Positions 14,510 to 29,926 of a DNA stretch of 44,728 nucleotides are shown one piece after another. The stretch is from an uncultured Sphingomonadaceae bacterium (GTDB lineage Bacteria; Pseudomonadota; Alphaproteobacteria; Sphingomonadales; Sphingomonadaceae), in contig CAXTHU010000001.1 in the NCBI GenBank assembly GCA_964244125.1, positions 1 through 44,728 on the forward strand, given 5' to 3'. The first letter of the stretch is position 1; each line of letters begins with the position of its first letter. The notes under the pieces are model-generated. The model did not search any database. It saw nothing but the letters and a program-made list of their open reading frames with translations, and was not told where the DNA came from. Made by a program: the position numbers and the translations under genes.

Positions 14510-15733
14510 TCAGTTGTTCTTCAGCGCCAGCGCCGTCGCGGTCACCGAGAAGATCGGCGAGATCAGGAGGTTGATGATCTGGACCAGCTTGCTCGTCGTG
14601 TTCGACGGCGAATTGGCGAGATAGACCACGTCCTTGTCCTGCATCGCGAAACGCTGCGACAGGAAGTAGCTGGCGGGATCGGTGAGATCGAGGCGGTAGA
14701 TGATCGGCGTGCCGTCCGGCCCGCCGCCGCCCTGCGCGGGCGCATAGCGGAAGACGAACACGGCACGCGGATCGGCCGACGTGTCGCTCGGGCCGCCGGC
14801 GCGGGCGACCGCTTCGGCGAGCGACACGCCGACGGCGTTGAACGGCGCCTGCGCCACGCGGCCGGCGGCGCCCAGCACGACGTAGCTGCGCTCGCGCCGG
14901 AGCAGCTCGATGCGGTCGCGCGGCAGCAGGACGAGGTCGTCGGCCGAGCGCGAGCGGATCGCCGACAGCGGTGCCTCGACGGTGCGGCCGTCGCGGGTGA
15001 AGCGGACGCGGATGTCCTCGGGCTGGTCGGCGCCGCCGGTCGAGCTGCCGCCGGCGATGCCGCCGGCGTCGGCGATGGCGTCGAGCAAGGTCTCGCGCGC
15101 GCCGGTCAGGCGATAGCGGCCGGGCGTGCGCGCCTGCCCCGTCACCAGCACGGTGCTGGCGACCGTCTGGCCCAGCGTCACGATCACCTGCGGGCTCTGC
15201 GACTTGCCGGCCAGCCCCGCCTCGATCATGCGGCCGACCTGCGTCGTCGTCTTGCCGGCGACCTGGAGGCGGCCGACGTAGGGCACGCTGATCGCGCCGT
15301 CCTCGTCGACCGACAGCCCCGTCACCTGGCCGCGCCGGGCGGTGTCGGTCTGCGGGAGCGCGCCGCTCTCGCTCAGGGTCGCCTGGCCGCCGCCCGAGAA
15401 GAGCGAGGCGCCGACCTCGAACACCGAGATCTGGAGCACGTCGCCCGGCCCGATCACGTCGACCCGGCCCGGACGCGCGAGGCCGGCGAGCGCCGTGGTC
15501 GAAACCGCGGCCGTCGTCGCCATCGCCGGCAGGGTCGGCTCGACGCCGAGGCCGGCGATGTTGGCCGGCGCGACATCGACGATGCGGAAACCCATCAGGT
15601 TCCGGTCGGCCTCGGCGCCGCGGACGATCTGCCTGGCGGTCGGGCCGCTGGACGGCAGGCTGGCGCAACCCGACAGCAGCAGCGCGCCGGAGGAGGCGAA
15701 AGCCACCGCGCGGCTCACGGCCCGCTTCGTCAT
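14510..15733 (-). CDS. Outer-membrane polysaccharide export lipoprotein (Wza/KpsD/BexD-type)
   Basis: Lipobox LLLSGC followed by SLPSSGP, PES motif 'IGPGDVLQISVFE...VDEDGAISVPYVG', SLBB repeats and the C-terminal 'F.MQDKDVVY.AN'. Confidence 0.88.
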   Translation of the reverse strand: MTKRAVSRAVAFASSGALLLSGCASLPSSGPTARQIVRGAEADRNLMGFRIVDVAPANIAGLGVEPTLPAMATTAAVSTTALAGLARPGRVDVIGPGDVLQISVFEVGASLFSGGGQATLSESGALPQTDTARRGQVTGLSVDEDGAISVPYVGRLQVAGKTTTQVGRMIEAGLAGKSQSPQVIVTLGQTVASTVLVTGQARTPGRYRLTGARETLLDAIADAGGIAGGSSTGGADQPEDIRVRFTRDGRTVEAPLSAIRSRSADDLVLLPRDRIELLRRERSYVVLGAAGRVAQAPFNAVGVSLAEAVARAGGPSDTSADPRAVFVFRYAPAQGGGGPDGTPIIYRLDLTDPASYFLSQRFAMQDKDVVYLANSPSNTTSKLVQIINLLISPIFSVTATALALKNN

Positions 15734-15779
15734 ACCGCCGTCCCTTGAACCCATGCCCGCCAGATCCTGCCCCGAACGC

Positions 15780-17090
15780 TCAGACGCGGGCACCGCCGAC
15801 CACCTGCCGGTAGAGCGCCGCGACCCTGTCCCGGTAGCGGCTGGACGAGAAATTGCCAGCCTGAATCGGCCCCGCCGCCGCCAGCCGCCGGCGCAGGCCC
15901 TCGTCGCCGTCGAGCCGGCGGATGCCGGCGGCGATCGCCGCCACGTCGTAGGGATCGACCGTCAGCGCCGCCTCCCCCACCACCTCCGGCAGCGCGCCGG
16001 TATCGCCGGTGAGCAGCGGGACGCCGAGCGCCAGCGTCTCCAGCGCCGGCAGGCCGAAGCCCTCGTGGAGCGAGGGGAACAGGACGGCGCGCGCCCCCCG
16101 GATCAGCTCGACCAGCAGCGGCCGGGGGAGATAATCGACCACCCGCACCCGCTCGGCCGCCGCCAGCCGCTTGCCGTGGCCGCCGTTGAGCAGGCGGAGC
16201 GCGTCCTCCGACCGCCAGCCGCCGGCGCCGACGATGACCAGCGGGGCCGCGACGTCGGCCGACAGATACGCCTCGATCAGCCGGCCGACATTCTTCTTCG
16301 GCTCGATCGCGCCGAAGAACAGGAAATAGCCGTCGCGCGCCAGATCGAACAGCCGCGCCAGCCGCCGGTCGAGATCGTCGCCTTCCACTGCGGCGGCGGG
16401 CAGGTCGACGGGCTGGAAGGTGTTGACGACGCGCGCCGGATCGGTCGGGAACAGCTCCAGTATGTCGCGGCGCGACGCCTCCGACACGGTGCAGATCGCC
16501 GCGGCTTGCGCCACGCAGCGGCCGATCAGCGCGTCGTGATAGCGCTTGTCCTCCAGGCTGGTATGCGGCAGCCGCAGCGGCACGAGATCGTGGATGGTGT
16601 AGATGTTGGCCGCCCCCGCCAGCGTCACCGGCACCGGATAGGTCCAGTGCATCACCGCCGGGGGATCGGGCACGCGCACCGTCATGAACCGGCCGTAGCG
16701 GCGGAAATGCCGCACCGAGATGGTGAACAGCGAGCCGAGGCTGAACAGCCGGTCGAAGCGCGGCAGGCTGGCGAAATCGGCGTTCACCACCCGGCCGCTC
16801 ACCGGCACCGGCACCATGTCGCGCGGGAAGGGCGAGGTGAAGGCGCGCTTGATTGCCCGGCGGAGCGTCGGCTTGAGCTTGACGGCGGCCGGATCGCCCT
16901 CGGCCAGACGGGCGTAGAACAGCGTCTCGCGCAGTTCGGGCCGGGCCTTGGGCGGGATGTCCAGCCCGAAGAGCAGGTCGATCGGGTGGCCCAGTTCGTC
17001 GACCGCCCGCGCGAGCGTCCGGCCATAGGTGGCGACCCCGGTGCCGCGGGTCATGGCGAGGTTGTAGCCGTCGATGCCGACCCGGTTCAT
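15780..17090 (-). CDS. Glycosyltransferase family 4
   Basis: GTGVATY, TIHDLVPL, GAIEPKKN, and FPSLHEGFGLPALE (EX7E). Confidence 0.9.
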   Translation of the reverse strand: MNRVGIDGYNLAMTRGTGVATYGRTLARAVDELGHPIDLLFGLDIPPKARPELRETLFYARLAEGDPAAVKLKPTLRRAIKRAFTSPFPRDMVPVPVSGRVVNADFASLPRFDRLFSLGSLFTISVRHFRRYGRFMTVRVPDPPAVMHWTYPVPVTLAGAANIYTIHDLVPLRLPHTSLEDKRYHDALIGRCVAQAAAICTVSEASRRDILELFPTDPARVVNTFQPVDLPAAAVEGDDLDRRLARLFDLARDGYFLFFGAIEPKKNVGRLIEAYLSADVAAPLVIVGAGGWRSEDALRLLNGGHGKRLAAAERVRVVDYLPRPLLVELIRGARAVLFPSLHEGFGLPALETLALGVPLLTGDTGALPEVVGEAALTVDPYDVAAIAAGIRRLDGDEGLRRRLAAAGPIQAGNFSSSRYRDRVAALYRQVVGGARV

Positions 17091-18199
17091 GCCGCCGCCC
17101 CGGCGTAGAAGGCGTCGAGCCGCGCGGCATAGGCGGCGGGCGCGAAGAAGGCGGCGCGCGCGCGCCCCGCCGCCGACAGGCCGGCGGCGAGCGCGTCGTC
17201 GGCGTCCAGCCGGGCGATGGCGGCGGCCATCGCGGCGGTGTCGCGCGGATCGACCGCGAGGGCCGCGCCGCCCGCCACTTCCGCCTGTGCGCCAAGATCG
17301 GATGTCATCACCGGCGTGCCTAGCATCATCGCCTCGGCGATCGGTAGCCCGAAACCCTCGGCGAGCGACGGGAAGAGGAGCGCGCGGGCATCGCGCATCC
17401 AGGCGAACAGGGTGGCCGGCGCCTGCCAGGGCAGGCGGACGACCAGCGGCCGCGCGTCCAGCATCGCCTCCAGCGCGGCGTCCGCCGCCGGCCCGACGAC
17501 GACCAGCGGGCGCCGCGTGCCGGACAGCGCATGCGCCTCGGCCAGCCGGGCGATGTTCTTGCGCGGCTCCACCGTGCCGCAGAACAGGTAGAAGCCGCCC
17601 GGCGGCAGCAGCGACTGGGTGCCGGGCAGCGGGTCCGCCGCCTGCCAGCAGTTGCCGATCCTCGCCGGATCGATCCCCAGGGTCGCGACCAGCTCCGCCC
17701 GCCCCGCTTCCGATACCGCCAGCAGCCGGTGGGCGTGCGCCAGGATGGCGGCGAGCAGGCGGCGGTGGCGCCGCCCGGAAATCGTGGTGAGATCGGGCCG
17801 GGTGAGCGGGATGAGATCATGGACGGTATAGATATTGCGCCAGCCGTCGAGCCGGAGCGGCACCGGATAGGTCCAGTGCATCAGCCCGGGCGGACCGTCC
17901 ACCGTCAGCCGCAGCGGCCGGCCATGGAGATCGAAATGGGCCTGCGCCTCGGCGAAGAGGCCCGGCGGGGCGACCAGCCGCTCGCCCCGCCGCACCAGCG
18001 CCCGCGCGCCGGGGCGCAGCGCGGCGAGGCGGCGGCGCCAGCGGCCGGGCCGTTCGCCCGCCGCCTCCGCCAGGATCAGCGGCGGACGGCCCGCCCGGGC
18101 GAGCGTCGCCACCAGCCGGTCGGCATAGCTGCCGACCCCGGTGGCGCCGGCGTCCAGCATCCGGCCATCGACGCACAAGGGAATATTCATGTCGGCCAT
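17087..18199 (-). CDS. Glycosyltransferase family 4, paralog of the downstream gene
   Basis: TGVGSY, MHWTYPVP, TVHDLIPL, GTVEPRKN and FPSLAEGFGLPIAE motifs. Confidence 0.9.
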   Translation of the reverse strand: MADMNIPLCVDGRMLDAGATGVGSYADRLVATLARAGRPPLILAEAAGERPGRWRRRLAALRPGARALVRRGERLVAPPGLFAEAQAHFDLHGRPLRLTVDGPPGLMHWTYPVPLRLDGWRNIYTVHDLIPLTRPDLTTISGRRHRRLLAAILAHAHRLLAVSEAGRAELVATLGIDPARIGNCWQAADPLPGTQSLLPPGGFYLFCGTVEPRKNIARLAEAHALSGTRRPLVVVGPAADAALEAMLDARPLVVRLPWQAPATLFAWMRDARALLFPSLAEGFGLPIAEAMMLGTPVMTSDLGAQAEVAGGAALAVDPRDTAAMAAAIARLDADDALAAGLSAAGRARAAFFAPAAYAARLDAFYAGAAA

Positions 18200-18299
18200 G
18201 CGACAGGCGGAGCGGTTGGGGCGACCGATGGTTGTCCCTGCCTAGCGATTGCCGCGATTAGACGCCACATGACGGCGGCCAAGCAAATACGGGACTGCC

Positions 18300-18962
18300 A
18301 TGATCGTCTTTGACCATGTGTCGAAAAAATATAACATCCGGCGATTCGAGAAGCAGGTCCTGCGGGATATCAGCTTCACCATCAACCGGGGCGACAGCAT
18401 CGGCATATGCGGCGCGAACGGGGCGGGCAAGTCCACCCTGATGCGCCTGATCGCCGGCGTCGAGGCGCCGACGTCCGGCACGGTCAGCCGCAGCATGTCG
18501 ACCTCCTGGCCGATCGGCTATACCAGCTGCTTCCAGTCGAGCCTGACGGGCGCCGACAACACCCGCTTCATCGCCCGCATCTACGGCCAGAATGTCGACG
18601 AGCTGCTCGGCTTCGTGGAGGATTTCGCCCAGCTGGGGGCCTATTTCCACCAGCCGATCAGCACCTATTCGGCCGGCATGACGGCACGTCTCGCCTTCGG
18701 CATCAGCCTGGCGGTGAACTTCGAATGCTATCTGGTGGACGAGGTGACGGCGGCGGGCGACCAGCGCTTCGCCGAACGCTGCCACGAGGCGCTGGTGACG
18801 CGGCGGCGGAACGGCACGCTGGTGATGATCTCGCACAGCTTCGCCACGCTGGAGCAATATTGCGATCGCGGCGCCGTGCTGCACGATGGCCACCTCACCT
18901 TCTTCGACACCGTCGCCGAGGCGGTGGAGGTGCACAACCACAATCAGCGGATCGCGGCGTAG
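18300..18962 (+). CDS. kpsT: Capsular polysaccharide ABC exporter ATP-binding subunit (KpsT/BexA-like)
   Basis: Walker A GANGAGKST, SWPIG, signature YSAGM..RLAFG.S and Walker B YLVDE. Confidence 0.85.
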   Translation: MIVFDHVSKKYNIRRFEKQVLRDISFTINRGDSIGICGANGAGKSTLMRLIAGVEAPTSGTVSRSMSTSWPIGYTSCFQSSLTGADNTRFIARIYGQNVDELLGFVEDFAQLGAYFHQPISTYSAGMTARLAFGISLAVNFECYLVDEVTAAGDQRFAERCHEALVTRRRNGTLVMISHSFATLEQYCDRGAVLHDGHLTFFDTVAEAVEVHNHNQRIAA

Positions 18963-19051: not shown

Positions 19052-20215
19052 ATGGCACTCCTCGGCCTCGGCTCGAAACCCTTCTTCGACGACAAGAACC
19101 GCGCCTTCTGGTTATTGCAGTCGCTCGGCTGGGGGGGGTATTTCCTGCTGCGCGCGCTGGGTGGCCTGGCCAACAACATGGGCTGGCTGTTCGTCGTGCC
19201 CTCGGCGCTCTCCACCGCCACCGGCTATTCGCTGACGCTGCTGATGGCCGCCGCCTTCCGCCGGCTCATCAACGCCCGGCCGATCGTGACGTGGAGCGTG
19301 TCGATCCTGCTGCTCGTCGTCGCCTCCTTCGCTTTCTCGACGATCGAGGTGTGGGCGCACGCCACCTTCTACCGCCCCGGCTCGCGGCCCGAGGGGGTGC
19401 AGTTCTTCGGCGCGATCCTGCTCGATTTCGCCCTGCTCGCGGCCTGGTCCGGCCTCTATTACGCGATCAACTTCTTCCTCCAGCTGGAGCGGCAGTCGGT
19501 CCAGCTGCTGCGGCTGGAAACGCAGGCCTCGACCGCGCAGCTGGCCATGCTGCGCTACCAGCTGAACCCGCATTTCCTGTTCAACACGCTCAATTCGATC
19601 TCGACGCTGGTGCTGCTGAAGCAGACCGACCGGGCGAATGCGATGCTGTCGCGCCTCTCGTCCTTCCTGCGCTACACCATCGCCAACGAGCCTTCGGCCG
19701 AGGTGACGCTGGCGCAGGAGGTGGAGACGCTGAAGCTCTATCTCGAAATCGAGAAGATGCGCTTCGAGGACCGGCTGCGCACCCATTTCGACATCGATCC
19801 GGCGACGGCGCGCGCGCGCCTGCCCTCGCTCCTCCTCCAGCCGCTGGTCGAGAATGCGATCAAATACGCCGTGACCCCGCGCGAGGAGGGGGCCGACATC
19901 TCGGTCGCCGCGCGGCTGGCCGGGGGCCGCGTCCAGATCACCGTGTCCGACACCGGGCCGGGGTTGAACGGCGGCGCGCCACCGCCCAACTTCACCCCCG
20001 CGCAGATCGATTCGGCGCCGGGCGCGGCGGTGCAGTCCACGGGGGTGGGGCTGGCCAACATCCGCGACCGGCTGGCCCAAGCCTATGGCCCGGACCACCG
20101 TTTCGATGTCCGCGCCGCCGCCGGCGGGGGCTTCGGCGTCGTCATCGAGATACCGCATAGCGAAGTGCCCCGATCCCCCGAGCCCAGGGCCGACCCCGTC
20201 AAGGAAACCGCATGA
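19052..20215 (+). CDS. LytS-type sensor histidine kinase
   Basis: N-terminal TM helices, LRYQLNPHFLFNTLN, YLEIEKMRF, LQPLVENAIK and GVGLANIRDRL. Confidence 0.92.
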   Translation: MALLGLGSKPFFDDKNRAFWLLQSLGWGGYFLLRALGGLANNMGWLFVVPSALSTATGYSLTLLMAAAFRRLINARPIVTWSVSILLLVVASFAFSTIEVWAHATFYRPGSRPEGVQFFGAILLDFALLAAWSGLYYAINFFLQLERQSVQLLRLETQASTAQLAMLRYQLNPHFLFNTLNSISTLVLLKQTDRANAMLSRLSSFLRYTIANEPSAEVTLAQEVETLKLYLEIEKMRFEDRLRTHFDIDPATARARLPSLLLQPLVENAIKYAVTPREEGADISVAARLAGGRVQITVSDTGPGLNGGAPPPNFTPAQIDSAPGAAVQSTGVGLANIRDRLAQAYGPDHRFDVRAAAGGGFGVVIEIPHSEVPRSPEPRADPVKETA

Positions 20216-21018
20216 CCATCCGCACCATCCTGGTCGACGACGAGTCGCTGGCCGTCCAGGGCCTCCAGCTGCGCCTCGCCGCCCACGAGGACGTCGAGAT
20301 CGTCGAGACCTGCACCAACGGCCGCGAGGCGATCCGCGCGATCAAGACGCAGAAGCCCGATCTCGTCTTCCTCGACGTGCAGATGCCGGGCTTCGACGGC
20401 TTCTCGGTGGTGCAGGGGCTGATGGAGGTGGAGCCGCCGCTGATCGTCTTCGTCACCGCCTATTCCGACCACGCGCTGCGCGCGTTCGAGGCCGACGCGC
20501 TCGACTATCTGATGAAGCCGGTCGACGTGGACCGGCTGGCCGACACGATCGAGCGGGTGCGCCAGCGCCTGGCCGAGAAGCGCGGGTCGGAGGAGGCGGA
20601 GAAGCTGAAGGGGGTGCTGGCCGAGCATGCGCCCGAGGCCGCCGCCGAGGCGCTGGCCGACGCCGCCGCCGACGGCCCCTCGGCCAACCGCTTCGAAAAG
20701 CTCATCAACATCAAGGATCGCGGCCAGATCTTCCGCGTCGACGTCGACACGATCGAGCGGATCGACGCCGCCGGCGACTATATGTGCATCTATACCGGCG
20801 ACAACACGCTGATCCTGCGCGAGACGATGAAGGACCTCGAAAAGCGCCTCGACCCCCGCCGCTTCCAGCGCATCCACCGCTCCACCATCGTCAACCTGGA
20901 CCTGGTCAAGGAGGTGAAGCCCCACACCAACGGCGAATGTTTCCTGGTGCTGGGCTCGGGCGCGTCGGTGAAGGTGTCGCGCAGCTATCGCGAGGTGGTG
21001 GCGCGCTTCGTGCATTGA
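20212..21018 (+). CDS. LytTR response regulator
   Basis: Receiver domain (VDDE, FLDVQMPG, DYLMKP) plus LytTR domain (FQRIHRSTIVN, VKVSRSY). Confidence 0.92.
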   Translation: MTIRTILVDDESLAVQGLQLRLAAHEDVEIVETCTNGREAIRAIKTQKPDLVFLDVQMPGFDGFSVVQGLMEVEPPLIVFVTAYSDHALRAFEADALDYLMKPVDVDRLADTIERVRQRLAEKRGSEEAEKLKGVLAEHAPEAAAEALADAAADGPSANRFEKLINIKDRGQIFRVDVDTIERIDAAGDYMCIYTGDNTLILRETMKDLEKRLDPRRFQRIHRSTIVNLDLVKEVKPHTNGECFLVLGSGASVKVSRSYREVVARFVH

Positions 21019-21162: not shown

Positions 21163-22650
21163 ATGGCGTCCGCCGCTCCTCCCGACAACACCGATATCGC
21201 GGCGCTGGCCAGGGGCGGGCGGACCAATTTCTTCGGCTTCCTGCTGCGCCTCGCCGCGCGGCTGCCGTTCCTGTTCATCGCCGGCCGGGTCTATGGCGCC
21301 GACGCGCTCGGCCGCTTCGCCTATGCGGTCATCATCGTCGAGTTCGCCGGGCAGCTCGCCACCCTGGGGCTGAAGCGCGGCCTGGCGCAGCAACTGGCGA
21401 AGACGAGCCGGCCGCACGGCCATGTCGTGTGGGACGCGATGCTGCTGGGCGGGATCGCGGCGGCGGCGACGGCGGCGGTGCTCGCCATGGTGCCGCAGAT
21501 CATGTTCCCCAACAGCCGGCTGAACGGGCTGGACTGGCTGCTGCCGCTCACCGTCTTCGGGCTGGTCTGGTCCGACATCGCGCTCGCCGCGCTGGCCTAT
21601 CGGCTGGACATCGCCGCGACGGTGAAGGCGCGGTCGATCGTCGAGCCGTGGACCATCTCGATCGCCGCCTTCGCGCTCCAGTGGTATTCGCTGCGCGACG
21701 GGCTCATCCTGTCCTATGTCCTCTCGATCATCGCCGCCTTCGTCGCCTCGATCGTGCCGCTGGTGCGGAGCTACGGCGCCCCCGGCCGCTGGCAGCCCGA
21801 GCCGCACCGGCTGGCCAGCCTCACCCGGCGCAACCTGCCGCTGGCCGCCGCCGATGCGATCGAATGGGGCTCGCGCCGGCTCGACATCGCCATCCTCGGG
21901 CTGCTCTTCCCGCCGGCGACGGTCGGCATCTATTACGTCGCGCAGCAGGTCGCCTCGCTGCCGCAGAAGCTGAAGACCAGCTTCGATCCGATCCTGGGGC
22001 CGGTCATCACCCAGAAGCTGGAGGAAGGCGACAGGCGCGCCGTCGCCCGCCAGGTGCGGCAGGTCGGCTTCTGGATCATCGCCGCGCAGACCGCCATCGC
22101 GCTGGCGCTGGGCATCCCGGGCGAAGCGGTGATGGGGCTGGTCGGGCCGGATTATGTCGGCGGCGCCTGGGCGCTGGGCTTCCTGCTGGCGGCCGAGGTG
22201 GTGGCGGCGACGGCGGTGGTGGCGGAAGCGGCGCTGATCTACGTCGCGAGGCAGCGCAACCTCCTCGTCTCGCTGCTCATGGTGGCGGTGCAGGTCGCCT
22301 TGAGCTTCGCCGTCGTCCACGCCATGCGCGCGCTCCACTGGCCGCTGCTGGTCCAGGCCGCCGGGCCGGCGCTGGCGATGACCTGCGCGCTGGGCCTCGC
22401 CTCGATCCTGAAGGCGCGGCTGCTCGGACGATTGCTCGGCGCCGGGGTATCGGGCTGGCGCTGGGCGCTCGTTTGGGCGGCGGCGCCGGCGGTGGTGGCC
22501 GGCGCCGTCGCCACGCGGCTGCCCGAGTGGCTGGAACTGGTCGTCGGCATCCCGGCGATCCTCGCCGGCTATGGCGCGGTCATCTGGTACAAGGGCTTCG
22601 GCGCGGAGGATCGCGAGCTGTTCCGGATGAAAGGCGCGGCGGCGGCGTAA
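21163..22650 (+). CDS. Oligosaccharide flippase (Wzx/MOP family)
   Basis: Polytopic membrane protein with 'RVYGADALGRFAYA', 'DIAILGLL..PATVGIYYVAQQ' and a MOP-like layout. Confidence 0.78.
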   Translation: MASAAPPDNTDIAALARGGRTNFFGFLLRLAARLPFLFIAGRVYGADALGRFAYAVIIVEFAGQLATLGLKRGLAQQLAKTSRPHGHVVWDAMLLGGIAAAATAAVLAMVPQIMFPNSRLNGLDWLLPLTVFGLVWSDIALAALAYRLDIAATVKARSIVEPWTISIAAFALQWYSLRDGLILSYVLSIIAAFVASIVPLVRSYGAPGRWQPEPHRLASLTRRNLPLAAADAIEWGSRRLDIAILGLLFPPATVGIYYVAQQVASLPQKLKTSFDPILGPVITQKLEEGDRRAVARQVRQVGFWIIAAQTAIALALGIPGEAVMGLVGPDYVGGAWALGFLLAAEVVAATAVVAEAALIYVARQRNLLVSLLMVAVQVALSFAVVHAMRALHWPLLVQAAGPALAMTCALGLASILKARLLGRLLGAGVSGWRWALVWAAAPAVVAGAVATRLPEWLELVVGIPAILAGYGAVIWYKGFGAEDRELFRMKGAAAA

Positions 22651-22690: not shown

Positions 22691-24235
22691 ATGAACGACG
22701 TCATGAGCGAAGATCATATCCGCGCCGACGTGGCGATCGTGGGCGCCGGTCCGGCGGGTCTGACGGCGGCGTATCTGCTGACGAAGGCGGGGGTATCCTG
22801 CGTGGTGATCGAGCGCGATCCGCATGCGGTCGGCGGGATCAGCCGGACGGTGGAGCATGGCGGCTTCCGCTTCGACATCGGCGGGCACCGCTTCTTCTCG
22901 AAATCGAGACAGGTGGTGGAGCTGTGGGACGAGCTGCTGCCGGACGACTTCATCGACCGGCCGCGGATGAGCCGCATCTATTACGAGGGCAGGTTCTACA
23001 GCTACCCCTTGCGCGCCTTCGAGGCGCTGGCGAACCTCGGCCTGTGGCGCTCGACGCTGTGCATGGCGAGCTTCGCCTGGGCCAGGCTGTTTCCCCGCCG
23101 CGATCCGCGGAGCTTCCGCGACTGGACGGTGAACCAGTTCGGCCACCGGCTCTTCTCGATCTTCTTCCGCACCTATACCGAAAAGGTGTGGGGCATGGCC
23201 TGCGAGGACATCTCGGCCGACTGGGCGGCGCAGCGGATCAAGGGCCTGAGCCTGGGCGGCGCCGTGTGGGACGGGCTGAAACGCTCGCTCGGCCTCAACC
23301 GCCGGCCCAACGACGGCATGGCGGCGAAGTCGCTGCTGGAGACCTTCCGCTATCCGAGACGCGGCCCCGGGATGATGTGGGAGGCGGCGCGCGACCGCGT
23401 CGTCGAAGGCGGCAACCGCGTGCTGATGGGCACCGCGCTCGGCCGGCTGCGGCATGACGGGACGCGCTGGCGGGTGACGGCGAGCGGCCCCGGGGGGCCG
23501 GTCGCGATCGCCGCCGACCATGTGATCTCCTCGGCGCCGCTGCGCGAGCTGGTCGGGCGCATCCACCCGCTGCCCGAATCGGCCGGGCGCGCGCTCGACC
23601 TGCGCTATCGCGACTTCCTGACGGTGGCGCTGAAGATCAGGAGCGCGGACATCTTCCCCGACAACTGGATCTACATCCACGATCCGGCGGTGAAGGTCGG
23701 CCGCATCCAGAACTTTCGTTCCTGGTCGCCCGAGATGGTGCCCGATCCGGCGCTGGCCTGCGTCGGGCTGGAATATTTCTGCTTCGAGGGGGATGGTCTC
23801 TGGGCCTCGTCCGACGACGATCTGGTGGCGCTGGCGACGCGCGAGATGGCGCAGCTTGGTCTCTGCGATCCGGCCGCCGTCGAGGGCGGCGTCGTCGTCC
23901 GCCAGGAGAAAGCCTATCCGGTCTACGACGCCGGCTATGCGCAGGCGGTGGCGGCGATCCGCGACGAGCTGGAGGGCCGCTATCCGGGCCTCCACCTGGT
24001 CGGGCGCAACGGCATGCACCGCTACAACAACCAGGATCACGCGATGATGACCGCGATGCTGGCGGTGCGCAACATCCTGGCCGGCGCGCGCGTCCACGAC
24101 CTGTGGAGCGTCAACGAGGACGCCGAATACCACGAGGCCGGCACCTCCGGCGCCGAGGACGACGCCGACATCGCCGCCGCGCTGTCGTCGGTCAGGGCGG
24201 TGCCCGAACGGGTCGCGCATCGCGCGGCGGCGTGA
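22691..24235 (+). CDS. FAD-dependent protein, UDP-galactopyranose mutase-like (eukaryotic-type motifs)
   Basis: GAGPAG and GG(I)S dinucleotide-binding motifs, FDIGGHRFFSK, YTEKVWG, W..QRI, FRYPRRGPG..W, AYPVY and GRNG..RYNNQDH. Confidence 0.7.
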   Translation: MNDVMSEDHIRADVAIVGAGPAGLTAAYLLTKAGVSCVVIERDPHAVGGISRTVEHGGFRFDIGGHRFFSKSRQVVELWDELLPDDFIDRPRMSRIYYEGRFYSYPLRAFEALANLGLWRSTLCMASFAWARLFPRRDPRSFRDWTVNQFGHRLFSIFFRTYTEKVWGMACEDISADWAAQRIKGLSLGGAVWDGLKRSLGLNRRPNDGMAAKSLLETFRYPRRGPGMMWEAARDRVVEGGNRVLMGTALGRLRHDGTRWRVTASGPGGPVAIAADHVISSAPLRELVGRIHPLPESAGRALDLRYRDFLTVALKIRSADIFPDNWIYIHDPAVKVGRIQNFRSWSPEMVPDPALACVGLEYFCFEGDGLWASSDDDLVALATREMAQLGLCDPAAVEGGVVVRQEKAYPVYDAGYAQAVAAIRDELEGRYPGLHLVGRNGMHRYNNQDHAMMTAMLAVRNILAGARVHDLWSVNEDAEYHEAGTSGAEDDADIAAALSSVRAVPERVAHRAAA

Positions 24236-26019
24236 TCCACCACAGCTTCCCGGCGGCGGCCGCGCCGCGCGTCGCGGCGCCTCCACCGGCCGCGAAAGGC
24301 CGGTGGACGATGATCGCGGTCTGGCTGGCGATCGCGGCGGTCATGGTCCGGTTCGACCGGGCCGCGATCGTCGCGGGCGACTATGGCGACACCGACGACT
24401 GGCTCCGTCTCCAGGAGATGCGCGACTGGCTGGGCGGGCAGGGCTGGTTCGACGTCCACCAGCACCGCATCGGCATCGGCGAGGGGCTCGCGATGCACTG
24501 GTCGCGGCTGGTGGACGTGCCGATCGCGCTGTTCGCCGCCCCGCTGGGGCCGCTGATCGGGCGCCATGCGGCCGAGGCGGTGGCGGTCACCGCGGTGCCG
24601 CTGCTGACGCTGGCGGTGATGCTCGCGGCGCTGACGCGCGTCGTCCGGCGGCTTTTCCCCGCTTCCCCGGCCGCGCCGGCGATCGGCGCCTTCCTGGTGG
24701 CGGTGGCGCCGCCGGTGCTGACCCAGATCCACCCGACCCGGATCGATCACCATGGCTGGCAGATCGCACTGGCGACGATCGCGCTCGCCGCGCTGGTCGG
24801 GCCGGCGCGCCGGCGCGCCGGCATCGTCGCCGGCCTCGCCACCGCGCTCTACCTCAACATCTCGCTGGAGGGGCTGCCGTTCGCGGTCGCGACGGCCGGC
24901 GTCCTCGCGCTCGGCTGGGCCTTCGGGATGGAGCGGCAGGAACGGTTGCTCGGCTTCCTGGCGGCGCTCGCCCTCGGCTCGGCGGTGCTGCTGGCGGCCA
25001 CCGCGCCGCTCTCGCGCTTCGGGCTGCCCTGGTGCGACGTGATCCTGCCGGCGCATGTCCTCGCGCTCGGCGTCGCGACGCTCGGCTGCGCCGCGATCGC
25101 GCGGCTGTCGGCGCCGGCGGCGCGGATCGGCGGGCTTGTCGTCGTCGGCGCCGGGGCGGCGGCGGCGCTCTGCCTGGCGGCGCCGATCTGCGCCACCGGG
25201 CCGTTCGGGATGCTCGATCCGCTGTCCCGGCTCTACTGGTACGACAACGTCGTCGAGGGGCTGCCGATCTGGCGCCAGCGGATCGCGGTGGCGCCGATCA
25301 TGGTCGGCTTCCCGCTGATCGGCCTCGTCGGCGCGCTGCGCGCCTGGCGCGGCGCGGCGGAACCCGAACAGCGGCGGCGGTGGCTGATGCTGCTGATGCT
25401 GGGGCTGGCCACGCTGGTCACCGGCATGCTGGTGCGCCGGGCGGGCGGGATCGCGCATGTCGTCGCGGTGCCCGGCGCGCTGGCGCTGATCCTGTCGCTG
25501 AAGGCGCGGATCGGGCTCAGCCGGGTGCCGCCGGTCCGCGTCGTCGGCACGACGGCGGCGATCCTGCTGCTGTCGCCGCTGATGCCGGCATGCCTCGGCG
25601 TCCTGCTGGATCGCGCGCCGCCCGCGCGGCCGGCGCCGAAGCTCCGCTGCGGCCTGGACTGCGCGCTGGCCCAGCTCGCCGCCATGCCGCCCGCATCGAT
25701 CCTCGCCGGCCTCGACATGGGGCCGGAACTGATCGCGCGGACGCCGCACCGGGTCTATTCCGCCGGCTATCATCGCAGCGGCCGGCCGATGACGGAGACG
25801 GTGCGCGCCTTCCTGATGCCGCCCGGTGTCGCCCACCGACTCGTCGCCGCCCGCCGCCTGGACCATGTCCTGATCGATCCGCGATCGGGCGAGGCGGAGA
25901 TCTACCGCAAGGCGGCGCCCGACGGCCTCATGGCGCGACTGCTGGCCGGGCGTGCGCCATCCTGGCTGCGCCCGGTGGCGATCGGCGGTCCGCTGAAGCT
26001 CTGGCGCGTGGTCGGCTGA
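24232..26019 (+). CDS. Polytopic GT-C glycosyltransferase, STT3/oligosaccharyltransferase-like (paralog 1)
   Basis: The GTG start overlaps the upstream TGA. Many TM helices and a soluble C-terminal domain. Motifs DTDD, HWSRLVD, RIDHH, NVVE, GLDMG and YHR. Confidence 0.65.
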   Translation: MIHHSFPAAAAPRVAAPPPAAKGRWTMIAVWLAIAAVMVRFDRAAIVAGDYGDTDDWLRLQEMRDWLGGQGWFDVHQHRIGIGEGLAMHWSRLVDVPIALFAAPLGPLIGRHAAEAVAVTAVPLLTLAVMLAALTRVVRRLFPASPAAPAIGAFLVAVAPPVLTQIHPTRIDHHGWQIALATIALAALVGPARRRAGIVAGLATALYLNISLEGLPFAVATAGVLALGWAFGMERQERLLGFLAALALGSAVLLAATAPLSRFGLPWCDVILPAHVLALGVATLGCAAIARLSAPAARIGGLVVVGAGAAAALCLAAPICATGPFGMLDPLSRLYWYDNVVEGLPIWRQRIAVAPIMVGFPLIGLVGALRAWRGAAEPEQRRRWLMLLMLGLATLVTGMLVRRAGGIAHVVAVPGALALILSLKARIGLSRVPPVRVVGTTAAILLLSPLMPACLGVLLDRAPPARPAPKLRCGLDCALAQLAAMPPASILAGLDMGPELIARTPHRVYSAGYHRSGRPMTETVRAFLMPPGVAHRLVAARRLDHVLIDPRSGEAEIYRKAAPDGLMARLLAGRAPSWLRPVAIGGPLKLWRVVG

Positions 26020-26059: not shown

Positions 26060-27658
26060 ATGACCGCGCCCCCGCCAGGCCCCCGTGAAGCGCGCGCCTG
26101 GTGGGAAGGGCGGGCCTATGCGCTCATCCTGATCCTGCTCTCCGCCGTGCCGCTCGTCTGGCCGCCGGTGCCGCCGCTGGTCGATCTGCTCGGCCATATG
26201 GGCCGCTACCGCGTGCAGCTCGATCTGGCGACCTCGCCCTGGCTCGGGCAGTATTTCGGCTTCCACTGGGGGATCATCGCCAATCTCGGCGTCGACCTGC
26301 TGATGCAGGCGCTGGGGCCGGTGCTGGGGCTGGAGCCGGCGGCCAAGCTGATCGTCATGCTGATCCCGCCGCTGACCGTCGCGGGGCTGATCGGCATCGT
26401 GCGCGAGACGCATGGCCGGGTGCCCGCCACCGCCGGCTTCGCCCTGCCGCTCGCCTGGGGCTATCCGTTCCAGTTCGGCTTCGTCAATTTCGCCCTGTCG
26501 ATGGCGCTCGCCTTCTGCGCCTTCGCCTTGTGGCTGCGGCTCGGGCGGCTGGGCTGGCGGCGGCTGCGCGTCGTGCTGTTCGTGCCGATCGGCCTCGTCA
26601 TCTGGATCGCCCATATCTTCGGCTGGGGGGTGCTGGGTCTCTGCGTCTTTTCCGCCGAGCTGGTCGGGCATCGCCGGCGCGGCGACGCGCTGCCGCACGC
26701 GGTCTGGCGCGCGGGGCTCGCCTGCTGGCCGCTCTGGCCGCCGGTCCTGCCGATGGTGGCCTGGCGCGAGCAGGCCAGCGGCATCACCGGCGACTGGTTC
26801 ACCTGGACCGTGAAGCTCGCCTGGATGGCGTCGATCTTCCGCGAGCGGTTCCGCGCCTGGGACCTGGCAGGCGCGATCGGCCTCTACACGCTGGCGCTGA
26901 CCGCGCTGTTCGAGCGGCGCTTCCGCTTCGATCCGGTGCTGGGGCTGGCGGGGCTGGTGCTGGCGGCGACCTTCGTACTGCTGCCGCGCATCCTGCTCGG
27001 CTCGGCCTATGCCGACATGCGGCTGATGCCGACGACCGCGGCCTTCGTCGTGCTGGCGATCATCCCGGCGGGTTTCCCGATGCGCGGCCAGTGGTGGATC
27101 GCCGCGGCGGCGACCGGCTTCTTCGTCGCCCGCGTCGCGACCAGCACGGCGGCGCTGGCGCTCTACGGCGCCGGCTGGGCGGCGCAGCTGCCGGCGATCG
27201 ACCATATCCGTCCCGGATCGCGCGTGTTCGTCCAGGCCGCGATCCTATGCCAGCGCGAATGGCATACCTCGCGCATGGAGCATCTCTCCAGCTTCGCCAC
27301 CATCCGCGCCCAGGCCTTCGTCAACGACCAGTGGGTGATGCCGGGCGCGCAGCTCCTCACCATCCGCCAGGACCGGGCCGACGGCTTCTCGCGCGATCCG
27401 TCGCAGATCGCCCGGCCGACCGACCGCTGCCGCTCGCGGGGGGAGAAGCTGCTCGGCCCGGCGCTGGCGACCTTCCCGCGCGACGCCTTCGACTATGTCT
27501 GGCTGATCGACGTGCCGCGCGCCGGCCTGCCGCGCGATCCGGGGCTGGTGCCGCTGTGGGTGGGGGAACGGTCCGGGGCGCTATACCGGATCGTGCGCGG
27601 GACTATCGGAACACCCACACCCGGTTCAGGACGAACACCAGCGCCGGCGTCGCCGTGA
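26060..27658 (+). CDS. Polytopic membrane protein, probable GT-C glycosyltransferase of a different family
   Basis: An acidic/His motif follows TM1 (PPLVDLLGHMGRY), then NLGVD, FGFVNF, many TM segments and a C-terminal soluble domain ending FDYVWL. Confidence 0.55.
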   Translation: MTAPPPGPREARAWWEGRAYALILILLSAVPLVWPPVPPLVDLLGHMGRYRVQLDLATSPWLGQYFGFHWGIIANLGVDLLMQALGPVLGLEPAAKLIVMLIPPLTVAGLIGIVRETHGRVPATAGFALPLAWGYPFQFGFVNFALSMALAFCAFALWLRLGRLGWRRLRVVLFVPIGLVIWIAHIFGWGVLGLCVFSAELVGHRRRGDALPHAVWRAGLACWPLWPPVLPMVAWREQASGITGDWFTWTVKLAWMASIFRERFRAWDLAGAIGLYTLALTALFERRFRFDPVLGLAGLVLAATFVLLPRILLGSAYADMRLMPTTAAFVVLAIIPAGFPMRGQWWIAAAATGFFVARVATSTAALALYGAGWAAQLPAIDHIRPGSRVFVQAAILCQREWHTSRMEHLSSFATIRAQAFVNDQWVMPGAQLLTIRQDRADGFSRDPSQIARPTDRCRSRGEKLLGPALATFPRDAFDYVWLIDVPRAGLPRDPGLVPLWVGERSGALYRIVRGTIGTPTPGSGRTPAPASP

Positions 27659-28019
27659 CCATCAGCGGCGTCGGCGTCCAGGCGGGCAGGCCGAGGCGCG
27701 CGGTCAGCAGCCACACCCAGCCGGCGTTCAGCCCCAGGCTCACCAGCGAGACGCCGACGAACCGGCCGGTGGTGGCGAGCGGATCGTCCCGGCTGCCATG
27801 GCCGCGAAAGCTGTAGCGGCTGTGGGCGACATAGCCGATCGTGACGCCGACGACATAGCCGACCAGATTGGCGATCTGCGGCGCGAGGCCCGCGAGATAA
27901 TGCGCGGCGAAATAGGTCGAGATGGAACAGGCGGTCACCGCCAGGCCGGTCACGCCGTAGCGCGCCGCCTGGGCGAGGAGCGCGCGCCGTTCCGGCGACC
28001 AGCCGTCCAGAACACCCAT
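27603..28019 (-). CDS. GtrA family lipid-P-sugar flippase
   Basis: About 138 aa with four TMs. Motifs RYGVTG, AN..GY, Y..H.RYSF and C-terminal LNRVWVFR. Confidence 0.85.
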   Translation of the reverse strand: MGVLDGWSPERRALLAQAARYGVTGLAVTACSISTYFAAHYLAGLAPQIANLVGYVVGVTIGYVAHSRYSFRGHGSRDDPLATTGRFVGVSLVSLGLNAGWVWLLTARLGLPAWTPTPLMVTATPALVFVLNRVWVFR

Positions 28020-28150
28020 CGCACGCATCCCCGTTGCCGCCTTCCCTTGGCCGTCCGTCTTCCGCCGGCTAGAGCGGCTTCGTTAATTCGCCGTCGCCGG
28101 CAGGCGGGATCGGGCATGTAATGCGCCACGGCGCCGGGGGAAAGCGCGCG

Positions 28151-29926
28151 ATGGCGACCACGAGCGGCAGGGATCGGCGCTGGATCGGCTGGCTGCTGCT
28201 GGCCTGGGCCGCCGCCGCCGCCGCGATGCTGTGGTACAGATGGGGCGCGATCCACTGGTTCGCGCTGCCCGATACCGACGACAACATCCGCTTCGCCCAG
28301 GTGCGCGACTGGCTGAACGGCCAGCGCTGGTACGACCTGCGCCAATATCGTCTCGATCCGCCGCGCGGGGCCAGCATCCACTGGTCGCGGCTGGTCGACC
28401 TGCCGATCGCCGGGCTGATCCTGGCCGTCCGCCCGTTCGCCGGCACGCTGGTCGCGAACAAGGCGGCGGTGGCGCTGGCGCCGCTGATCCCGATGGCGCT
28501 GGCGCTGTTCGGCGGGGCGCTGGCGGTGCGGCGGCTGGTCGCGCCGGCGGCCTGGCCGCTGGCGGTGGCGCTGACGCTCGGCGGCCAGGCGGCGCTCTGG
28601 ATGTGGATGCCGCTGCGCATCGACCATCATGGCTGGCAGCTCGCGCTCCTGATCCTCACCGTCGCCGGCGCGGCCGATCCGAGGGGCACGCGCGGCGGGC
28701 CGACGATGGGGCTGGCGACCGCCGCGTCGCTGACCGTCGGGCTGGAGATGCTGCCCTATTTCGCGATCGCCGCCGTCGTGCTGGTGGCGCGCTGGGTGGC
28801 CGACGGCACCGAGGCGCGGCGGCTGGCGACGTTCGGCGCGAGTCTCGCCGCCGGGGCCGCGCTCGGCTATGCCGGCTTCGCCTCCTATGACAACCGGCAG
28901 GCATTGTGCGACGCATTGTCGCCGGTGTGGCTGTCGGACGCGCTGCTCGGTGGCGCGTTGGCGGTCGGGCTGGCGGCGTTGCCCCTGCGGAACTGGCGGA
29001 CGCGCGGCCTGCTGGCGCTGTTGGCGGGGGCGGCGGTCGCGGGCTTCCACGTCGCCGCCTGGCCGCAATGCCTCGGCCGGCCGGAGAACGTGTCGCCCGA
29101 ACTGGTCCGGCTGTGGCTCGGCAACGTCAAGGAGGCGCGGCCGATCTACCTCCATCCCTGGCGCACCGCGCTGCAGGTCGCCGCGCTCCCGGTGGCGGGG
29201 CTGGTCGGCGCGGCCTGGGCGACGTGGTCCGCGTGGCGGACGCCGCGCTTCGCCGCCTGGGCCTCCGCGCTGCTGTTCGTCGCGGCGGCCTGCGCGCTGC
29301 TGCTGTGGCAGATGCGCGCCGGGCCGGCGGCGCAGGTCCTCGCCGTGCCGGGCGCCGCCGCGCCGGCTTACGCGCTGTGGCGGCGGCTGGACGGCCACCG
29401 CCATGCCTGGGCGCAGGTGCTGGGCGGGGCGGCCGGCTTCCTGGCGATCTCGGGTCTGTGGACCAACATCGTGGTGCGCCTCCTGCCGGCGCCGCCCGCG
29501 CCGCCGCCGCGCGGCCTGAAGTCGGTGAAGCAGGATCGCAGCCGCTTCTGCCCGACGCTGCGCTCGCTCCGCCCGATCGCGCGGTTGCCGGCGGCGACCT
29601 TCCTGACCTTCGTGGATTTCGGCCCGCGCCTGATCGCCACCACCCGTCACGGCGCCATCGCCGGCCCGTATCACCGCAACGGCGCCGCGATCCTCGACGT
29701 CCACCACGCCTGGCGCGGGACGGCGGCGGCGGCGCACGACATCGTCCGGCGGCACGGCGTCGGCTACGTCATGACCTGCCCCGGCATGGCCGAATCGACC
29801 ATCTACGCGGCGCAGGCCCCGCGCGGCTTCTACATGGCGCTGACCCGGGGACAGGCGCCCGACTGGCTCCGGCCGGTGCCGCTGCCCGAGGGCAGCCCGC
29901 TCAGGCTGTGGCGGGTGACGGGTTGA
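28151..29926 (+). CDS. Polytopic GT-C glycosyltransferase, STT3/oligosaccharyltransferase-like (paralog 2)
   Basis: Same motif series as 24232..26019: [40 protein letters not shown] and C-terminal LWRV. Confidence 0.65.

Follow-up and report, generated by a model that had tools for sequence, protein, structure and literature searches.

The catalytic subunits of oligosaccharyltransferases (OSTs) are defined by their WWDYG pocket, and the STT3/AglB family carries the CAZy label GT66. The catalytic residues published for these enzymes are D56, R147, D154, D156, E319 and R375 in PglB, with a His in AglB in place of D156 (PMC6801728). AglB binds its metal with D47, D161 and H163, and E360 acts through water; WWDYG together with the DK/MI motif makes up the Ser/Thr pocket, and the same report gives a monophosphate lipid as the donor of euryarchaeal AglB (PMC8342417). 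Two PglB residues, Y462 and D475, were proposed to bind the N-acetyl group that the sugar carries, and single changes at W457, W458, Y460 or D475 inactivated the enzyme (PMC3527161). The fold has also been put to other uses. For example, the eukaryotic DPY19 C-mannosyltransferase is STT3-related and moves one sugar, taken from a monophosphate lipid, onto a protein acceptor other than Asn. In three-component Gtr systems, such as those of Shigella and Salmonella O-antigen glucosylation and the GT136 system, GtrA, a polyprenyl-phosphate-sugar synthase and a GT-C transferase handle a single sugar on polyprenyl monophosphate, and the classical cassettes are described as decorating glycans (PMC11127046). 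There are also precedents for GT-C enzymes that work with a GtrA or GtrB partner and O-glycosylate proteins, drawing the sugar from a monosaccharide-phosphate lipid, in the reports on the P. aeruginosa pilin arabinosyltransferase TfpW (bioRxiv 2020.04.19.049825) and on streptococcal GtrB/PgtC2 (PMC12041528).

The gene considered here lies at 28151-29926 on the forward strand of a 44,728-nt stretch (the window) of the source contig CAXTHU010000001.1. It is an uninterrupted ORF of 591 aa with a purine-rich stretch immediately 5' of its ATG. Translation placed each motif listed in a preliminary description of this DNA at the residue given there: DTDD at 41-44, WYD at 60, PPRG at 70, SIHW at 75, RIDHH at 156-160, NVKEARP at 325-331, LTFVDFG at 485-491 and [10 protein letters not shown] at 531. 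Judging from residue counts in 139 full-length homologs, these are not chance matches. The description had read the product as an STT3/PglB/AglB-like GT-C protein and proposed, among other checks, a structure prediction searched with Foldseek and an HMM comparison with STT3 (PF02516). The structure prediction agreed with it. An AlphaFold model built on the alignment of the 139 homologs (identity down to 27%) had a mean pLDDT of 96.3 and a pTM of 0.94, and Foldseek returned AglB at the top (E 3.5e-10), then STT3, DPY19, PglB, AftA and ArnT. VIA Z-scores were 28.7 for A. fulgidus AglB (PDB 3WAJ, 7E9S, 3VGP; rmsd 3.2, 507 aligned), 27.2 for STT3, 21.9 for DPY19 (PDB 7ZLH), 21.4 for C. lari PglB (PDB 3RCE, 5OGL), 20.8 for ArnT and 15.4 for AftD. 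The model matched AglB, STT3, DPY19 and PglB along its whole length, whereas the Aft/Emb/Alg enzymes stayed at Z 11-19. The best fold matches are all enzymes modifying proteins. The model is that of a polytopic GT-C protein in which TM1 is followed, on the outer face, by an acidic residue; it has a membrane domain in which we count 13 helices, and a C-terminal alpha/beta domain.

Profile comparisons placed the target in the same way. A broad profile of 118 sequences matched AfAglB-S1 (E 3.6e-6) and STT3A (E 1e-5; profile positions 104-548, covering both domains), and DPY19 weakly (E 0.11). Profile-profile comparison with 10 PglB-like proteins, which were picked from 16 loci and of which 2 were checked against solved PglB, gave 97.1% (E 1.4e-10) with D43, DHH, E328, R389 and D489 in register. 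PglB-like proteins are found in other classes of the phylum (L059-L068), and because four of them show a WWD motif (e.g., L061 and L062), canonical-looking N-OSTs are taken to occur there sporadically. By language-model features, the nearest named clusters to the target were STT3, AglB-core and Dpy19. The HMM check turned out differently: PF02516 gave no match above cut-off for the target, or for any protein of the source genome. One relative scored 19.4 bits, below the cut-off of 24.5, and the domain was precomputed in 2 of 116 distant homologs. Pfam and NCBIfam scans gave no family for the target or for its paralog in the window, a single-sequence search of solved structures with the target gave no match, and a viral fold library gave nothing below E 0.001. 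The KcsA matches of the first profile were artefacts of hydrophobic composition and were gone with the broader profile. Many homologs are named 'AcrB/AcrD/AcrF family protein' in databases; an efflux (RND) identity was rejected for the target on the lack of a Pfam/NCBIfam match and on a model that is confidently GT-C over its whole length.

The preliminary description also held that the catalytic set of an N-OST-like enzyme was kept, and both alignment and conservation in 137-139 of the 139 homologs support this. With the broad profile and hhalign, D43, D158, H160, E328 and R389 aligned with the OST catalytic set, giving the target an EL1 Asp, an EL2 DxD/DxH, an EL5 Glu and an EL6 Arg; the order and register of D56, D154/D156, E319, R375 and D465 in PglB are likewise preserved. 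D43 (28277..28279; 138/139) aligned with PglB D56 by hhalign and in the PglB segment register. The description had named D43/44, and D43 is the relevant catalytic-type Asp because it is present in 118/118 sequences of the broad alignment against 45/118 for D44, which was rejected as a catalytic residue. D158-H159-H160 (28622..28630; D158 139/139, H160 137/139) forms an AglB-type DHH motif by alignment and conservation, at the place of D167/E169 as described for STT3A (PMC8342417). NVKE328 (29123..29134) may be a degenerate TIxE/SVSE motif, with Glu in 138/139 and Thr/Ser in 14/139 homologs, and R389 (29315..29317; 139/139) aligned with STT3A R405 and PglB R375. D489 was kept in 126/139 and, in the broad alignment, in 76/118. 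Two further near-invariant residues, D254 and E199, are particular to the family, the latter (28745..28747; 139/139 and 118/118) standing where STT3 has its SWGG motif. R47, R80, H508 and R509 are also invariant in the family. The position of PglB R147, seven residues before the DxD Asp, is not Arg in the target, and the invariant R47 or R156 might substitute for it; H77, from its position, would be the counterpart of AglB H81. When the 13 helices were read from the model, the invariant polar residues all fell in loops of one face and short Arg-rich loops on the opposite face, so we infer that these residues share one side of the membrane. C253 and C307 co-varied perfectly (both in 45, neither in 73 of 118 sequences), a pattern that fits a periplasmic disulfide.

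The target shares with AglB and STT3 the EL1 Asp, the DHH motif, the EL5 Glu, the EL6 Arg and the Asp and Gly of WWDYG; it differs from them in the acceptor pocket and in the donor loop. FVDFGP (487-492; 29609..29626) replaces WWDYGY. The loss of the two Trp, already pointed out in the preliminary description, extends through the family, WW being found in 0/139 full-length and 0/118 broad homologs. The region that we take as the DK helix reads ExxxY, with Lys in 13/139 homologs and none conserved, and an MI-like hydrophobic residue may be present at 551. GPYHR (505-509; 29663..29677) stands in place of the DGGKH/DNxT loop. In the ungapped register that sets D459 on D489, PglB Y462 falls on P492 and D475 on G505, and neither Tyr at 492 nor Asp at 505 occurred in any of the 139 homologs. 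The equivalents of C. lari W463/W464, Y468 and D481 (C. jejuni D475) are all replaced. On these alignments, the donor side is rewritten as well as the acceptor side, a point absent from the earlier description, and the target is without the residues that read the usual sequon and the usual N-acetyl sugar. Lacking WWDYG, DGGK and a Pfam match, it was therefore not filed as an N-OST.

Two N-glycosylation readings were weighed against these data. An N-glycosyltransferase with a changed sequon, in which D43 and E328 would activate the amide of Asn (or Gln) and a different +2 residue would be read, agrees with the near-invariance of the amide-activating acidic pair of OSTs (EL1 Asp, EL5 Glu), with the retained D489 and with nearest folds that are all N-OSTs. 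However, the positions reported as essential in PglB, W457, W458, Y460 and D475 (PMC3527161), all differ in the target, and both the conserved Lys of the DK-helix region and the Arg before the DxD Asp are missing, and we consider this reading unlikely. Less credit still is given to a canonical PglB/AglB-type N-OST that uses a preassembled oligosaccharide on polyprenyl diphosphate, or to a non-catalytic lipid-binding protein. The overall fold and a flippase-type gene at 21163-22650 would suit the canonical enzyme, but the WW pair is absent throughout the family, the source genome is without an STT3 Pfam match and no pgl-like operon recurred in the examined loci. The near-invariance of the catalytic residues argues against an inactive protein.

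The target belongs to a large family in Alphaproteobacteria, of which the same window encodes a second paralog. Homologs made up 4825 of 7997 scored candidates, and clustering at 50% left 1102 representatives better than 1e-30. The family was present in 29 of the 301 genomes scanned across the phylum, a single one of them from another class, and in 37/60 Sphingomonadaceae genomes (39 matches minus 2 weak ones). All 37 family-positive Sphingomonadaceae genomes had gtrA, in 32 of them no more than 5 kb from the family gene (the chance of gtrA within 5 kb is about 0.4% in the source genome), and the 7 Sphingomonadaceae genomes without gtrA all lacked the family. Among 47 loci, scanned with models built partly from those same loci, 26 had gtrA, 21 a GT2 and 8 a mutase gene within 5 kb; any of the three was found in 34, and GT2 and mutase together in 1. 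Of the 13 loci with none of them, 1 had no family match at cut-off. A further 20 fresh loci lay outside model building; their 24 family genes comprised 13 of target type, 7 of paralog type and 4 left unassigned. Within 5 kb of the target-type genes, gtrA was found in 12/13, GT2 in 9/13 and the mutase in 0/13, whereas the mutase lay no more than 700 bp from each of the 7 paralog-type genes; it was accordingly rejected as the target's own donor source. Furthermore, a SAM methyltransferase gene followed gtrB (within about 6 kb) in 8/13 target-type loci. A 48-row tree grouped the target within a sphingomonad clade linked to gtrA/GT2 (100/100), and the paralog within one linked to the mutase (100/99). 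Two homologs, P0252 and P0383, combine a GtrA domain and an STT3-like domain in one polypeptide. At another locus (L007:2661-4256), a family copy with degenerate motifs (no DHH, altered EL5 and altered YHR loop) stands beside an intact copy and is possibly decaying. We found no paper on the family in a search of the openly accessible literature by terms other than the name 'AcrB/AcrD/AcrF', although supplementary gene tables could mention members, and a term check of PMC7950203 and PMC12871550 turned up nothing relevant. On this coverage, the family is a real, previously undescribed variant of a known enzyme class.

In the window itself, a GtrA-family membrane protein (27603..28028, reverse strand; PF04138, E 1.9e-19) is encoded next to the target and divergently from it, and is the sole GtrA match in the source genome. 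Upstream of the target, 26060..27658 (+) encodes a second, unrelated GT-C-fold protein of 532 aa without a Pfam family (pLDDT 92; Z 17.3 against Pmt4 and about 15 against STT3 and AftD) and with 3781 homologs. This second family, to which Pmt and STT3 folds are about equally near, has invariant D42, H46 and R49 after TM1 and recurs alongside target orthologs. The target paralog of the mutase-linked clade (24103..26019, +; 35% identity, likely start near 24310) is preceded by a gene for a FAD enzyme of the PRK07208 family (22691..24235, +), whose closest solved structure is a fungal UDP-galactopyranose mutase (E 2e-22). In three separate clades, flavoenzymes of this family stand next to STT3-like genes of paralog type, in nearly all cases where a GT2 is absent, and may make a furanose donor, on either a nucleotide sugar or a lipid-linked sugar. 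The flippase-type gene 5' of the FAD gene encodes a Polysacc_synt_3 membrane protein (21163..22650, +; PF13440, E 9e-11) and may be linked to the system. Directly upstream of this flippase-mutase-GT-C run, translations of 19052-21018 (+) gave a LytS-like histidine kinase and a LytTR-type response regulator, and 14510-18962, 9-14 kb upstream of the target, held a Wza/KpsD-type export protein, two GT4 glycosyltransferases and a KpsT/Wzt-type ABC ATPase in a capsule-export-like set.

No gtrB was found within the window. A GtrB-like GT2, for which the best NCBIfam match is PgfS-type (E 3e-80) but falls short of the model's cut-off, is encoded on another contig of the source genome (C74:8149-9108), accompanied by a SAM methyltransferase, and in a congener (G394) the GT2, the methyltransferase and gtrA directly adjoin the target's ortholog. 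On contig C74 (L075:6584-9836), the GT2 and methyltransferase genes follow one for an unannotated polytopic protein of 522 aa with DTTSY after its first helix, which is probably a further GT-C using the same donor. Because gtrA is near the family gene in 32/37 genomes, often with gtrB, the target is likely the terminal enzyme of a Gtr-type three-component pathway that takes one sugar off polyprenyl-phosphate, and not an N-OST of PglB type. Both the gene context and the missing N-acetyl-binding residues point to a donor in which polyprenyl monophosphate carries one non-acetamido sugar, and this donor route through GtrB and GtrA is well supported. The DHH motif, common to the target and euryarchaeal AglB, would be consistent with a monophosphate donor, though it is no proof. 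The fold part of the name given in the preliminary description, STT3/AglB, stands, and 'oligosaccharyltransferase' probably does not on the donor side.

In the pathway we propose, the GtrB-like GT2, encoded on contig C74 here and beside gtrA in relatives, would charge polyprenyl monophosphate with a sugar that bears no N-acetyl group, and the neighbouring GtrA would carry the lipid-linked sugar to the periplasmic face. By alignment with AglB and PglB, the target would then hold a divalent metal with D43, D158 and H160 and with E328 in the second shell, bind the lipid phosphate through H77, H159 and R389, and pass the sugar to the acceptor. The target would thus likely work like a Gtr-type terminal transferase on an AglB chassis. 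It has in common with the Gtr systems a GtrA, a polyprenyl-phosphate-sugar synthase and a GT-C enzyme, but its GT-C is of AglB/STT3 type; unlike AglB and STT3 it is encoded with gtrA/gtrB, and unlike PglB it has no pgl operon and likely uses a monosaccharide monophosphate. DPY19 would be the closest functional analogue of such a repurposed STT3, although its ExE and LRE motifs, as reported in PMC6801728, differ from the DxD/DHH of the target.

The choice of acceptor is the weak step of this explanation, and the preliminary description was right to leave open an atypical sequon, a hydroxyl, a glycan or a glyco(sphingo)lipid. Our best explanation, to which we give a probability of roughly 0.4, is that this AglB/STT3-fold, Gtr-type last enzyme acts free of a sequon on Ser/Thr hydroxyls of proteins; the outcome would be a single sugar on exported proteins without reading of Asn-x-Ser/Thr. 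A protein hydroxyl is a narrow favourite over a glycan or glycolipid. TfpW and PgtC2 offer the precedents mentioned above, and the TPR-bearing TfpW and the YfhO-family PgtC2 are, going by their descriptions, other GT-C types than the target. A possible link to proteins was seen in a distant clade, which shares 84% identity with a protein of Dongia rigui and whose genes stand head-to-head with flp-cpaA-cpaB-cpaC in 11/13 loci of one genus (L058:4747-8925 and L079-L089). The N-x-S/T sequon occurred in 0/12 linked Flp pilins versus 5/8 unlinked pilins of the same genus, and Ser/Thr counts in the linked tails (2-9) overlapped those of unlinked pilins (2-6). The link was absent from the other 5/16 strong loci of that order, and 2/5 pilin-linked genomes had no GtrA match; confined to one genus, it is therefore likely one event. 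In the 60 Sphingomonadaceae genomes, which are related so that co-occurrence tests are not independent, the family was associated neither with Flp pilins (34/37 with the family, 21/23 without) nor with PEP-CTERM proteins (25/37 and 19/23). In the source genome, 24 matches to PEP-CTERM proteins and two to Flp pilins (contig C151) are possible acceptors, and no acceptor gene was found near the target.

A serious competitor, to which we give somewhat over a third of the weight, keeps the same donor route and takes a glycan or glycolipid as the acceptor, possibly a different one in each lineage, such as a capsule/EPS side chain, an extended glycosphingolipid or a growing lipid- or protein-linked glycan. 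Against a protein acceptor it can be held that classical Gtr systems are described as modifying glycans (PMC11127046), that for the target model the lipid A modifier ArnT differs from PglB and DPY19 by no more than about 1 Z unit, and that EmbC, with a weakly STT3-like C-terminal subdomain, is reported to act on a glycan (PMC3044687). Several GT-C genes share one gtrA/gtrB at family loci, the methyltransferase often follows gtrB, the capsule-export and GT4 genes lie in the same window, and the invariant R47, R80, H508 and R509 could serve to bind an anionic sugar. However, the fold is clearly closer to AglB/STT3 than to the Aft/Emb/Alg enzymes, and neither lipid A nor sphingolipid can be a universal acceptor. 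LpxC was found neither in the source genome (90% complete) nor in 5/5 complete family-positive relatives, with positive controls. Lipid A was thus excluded in the sphingomonads tested, and O-antigen on LPS is therefore not the target of the enzyme there. For Spt, four of four family-positive genomes of another family gave 34-36% identity to the Spt fragment of the source genome, against 76% in a sphingomonad; on this identity contrast, which carries the reading as no control genome, Caulobacter included, passed the Spt cut-off, the four have no Spt ortholog and a sphingolipid acceptor is unlikely in them. Furthermore, the family occurs in only 37/60 Sphingomonadaceae genomes and is therefore not part of core glycosphingolipid synthesis.

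Returning to the favoured protein acceptor, a wider reading, held tentatively and at odds well below even, is that a widespread AglB/STT3 offshoot in Alphaproteobacteria has left N-glycosylation, as DPY19 did in animals, and now hands single sugars, without a sequon, to proteins, Flp pilins being an example. Sphingomonads and rhizobia-like bacteria would then possess an unrecognised form of protein glycosylation, in which paralogs use a hexopyranose (gtrB-linked) or a furanose (mutase-linked) donor. The WWDYG pocket is what defines an OST catalytic subunit; in this family, thousands of bacterial proteins keep the catalytic core and rewrite the acceptor pocket as well as the loop for the donor. 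The family corrects a common database misannotation as AcrB efflux pump and is a natural experiment in how the AglB/STT3 fold shifts its specificity. It could supply a transferase free of the N-acetyl donor restriction of PglB, and it is a candidate for an undescribed periplasmic glycosylation in Alphaproteobacteria.
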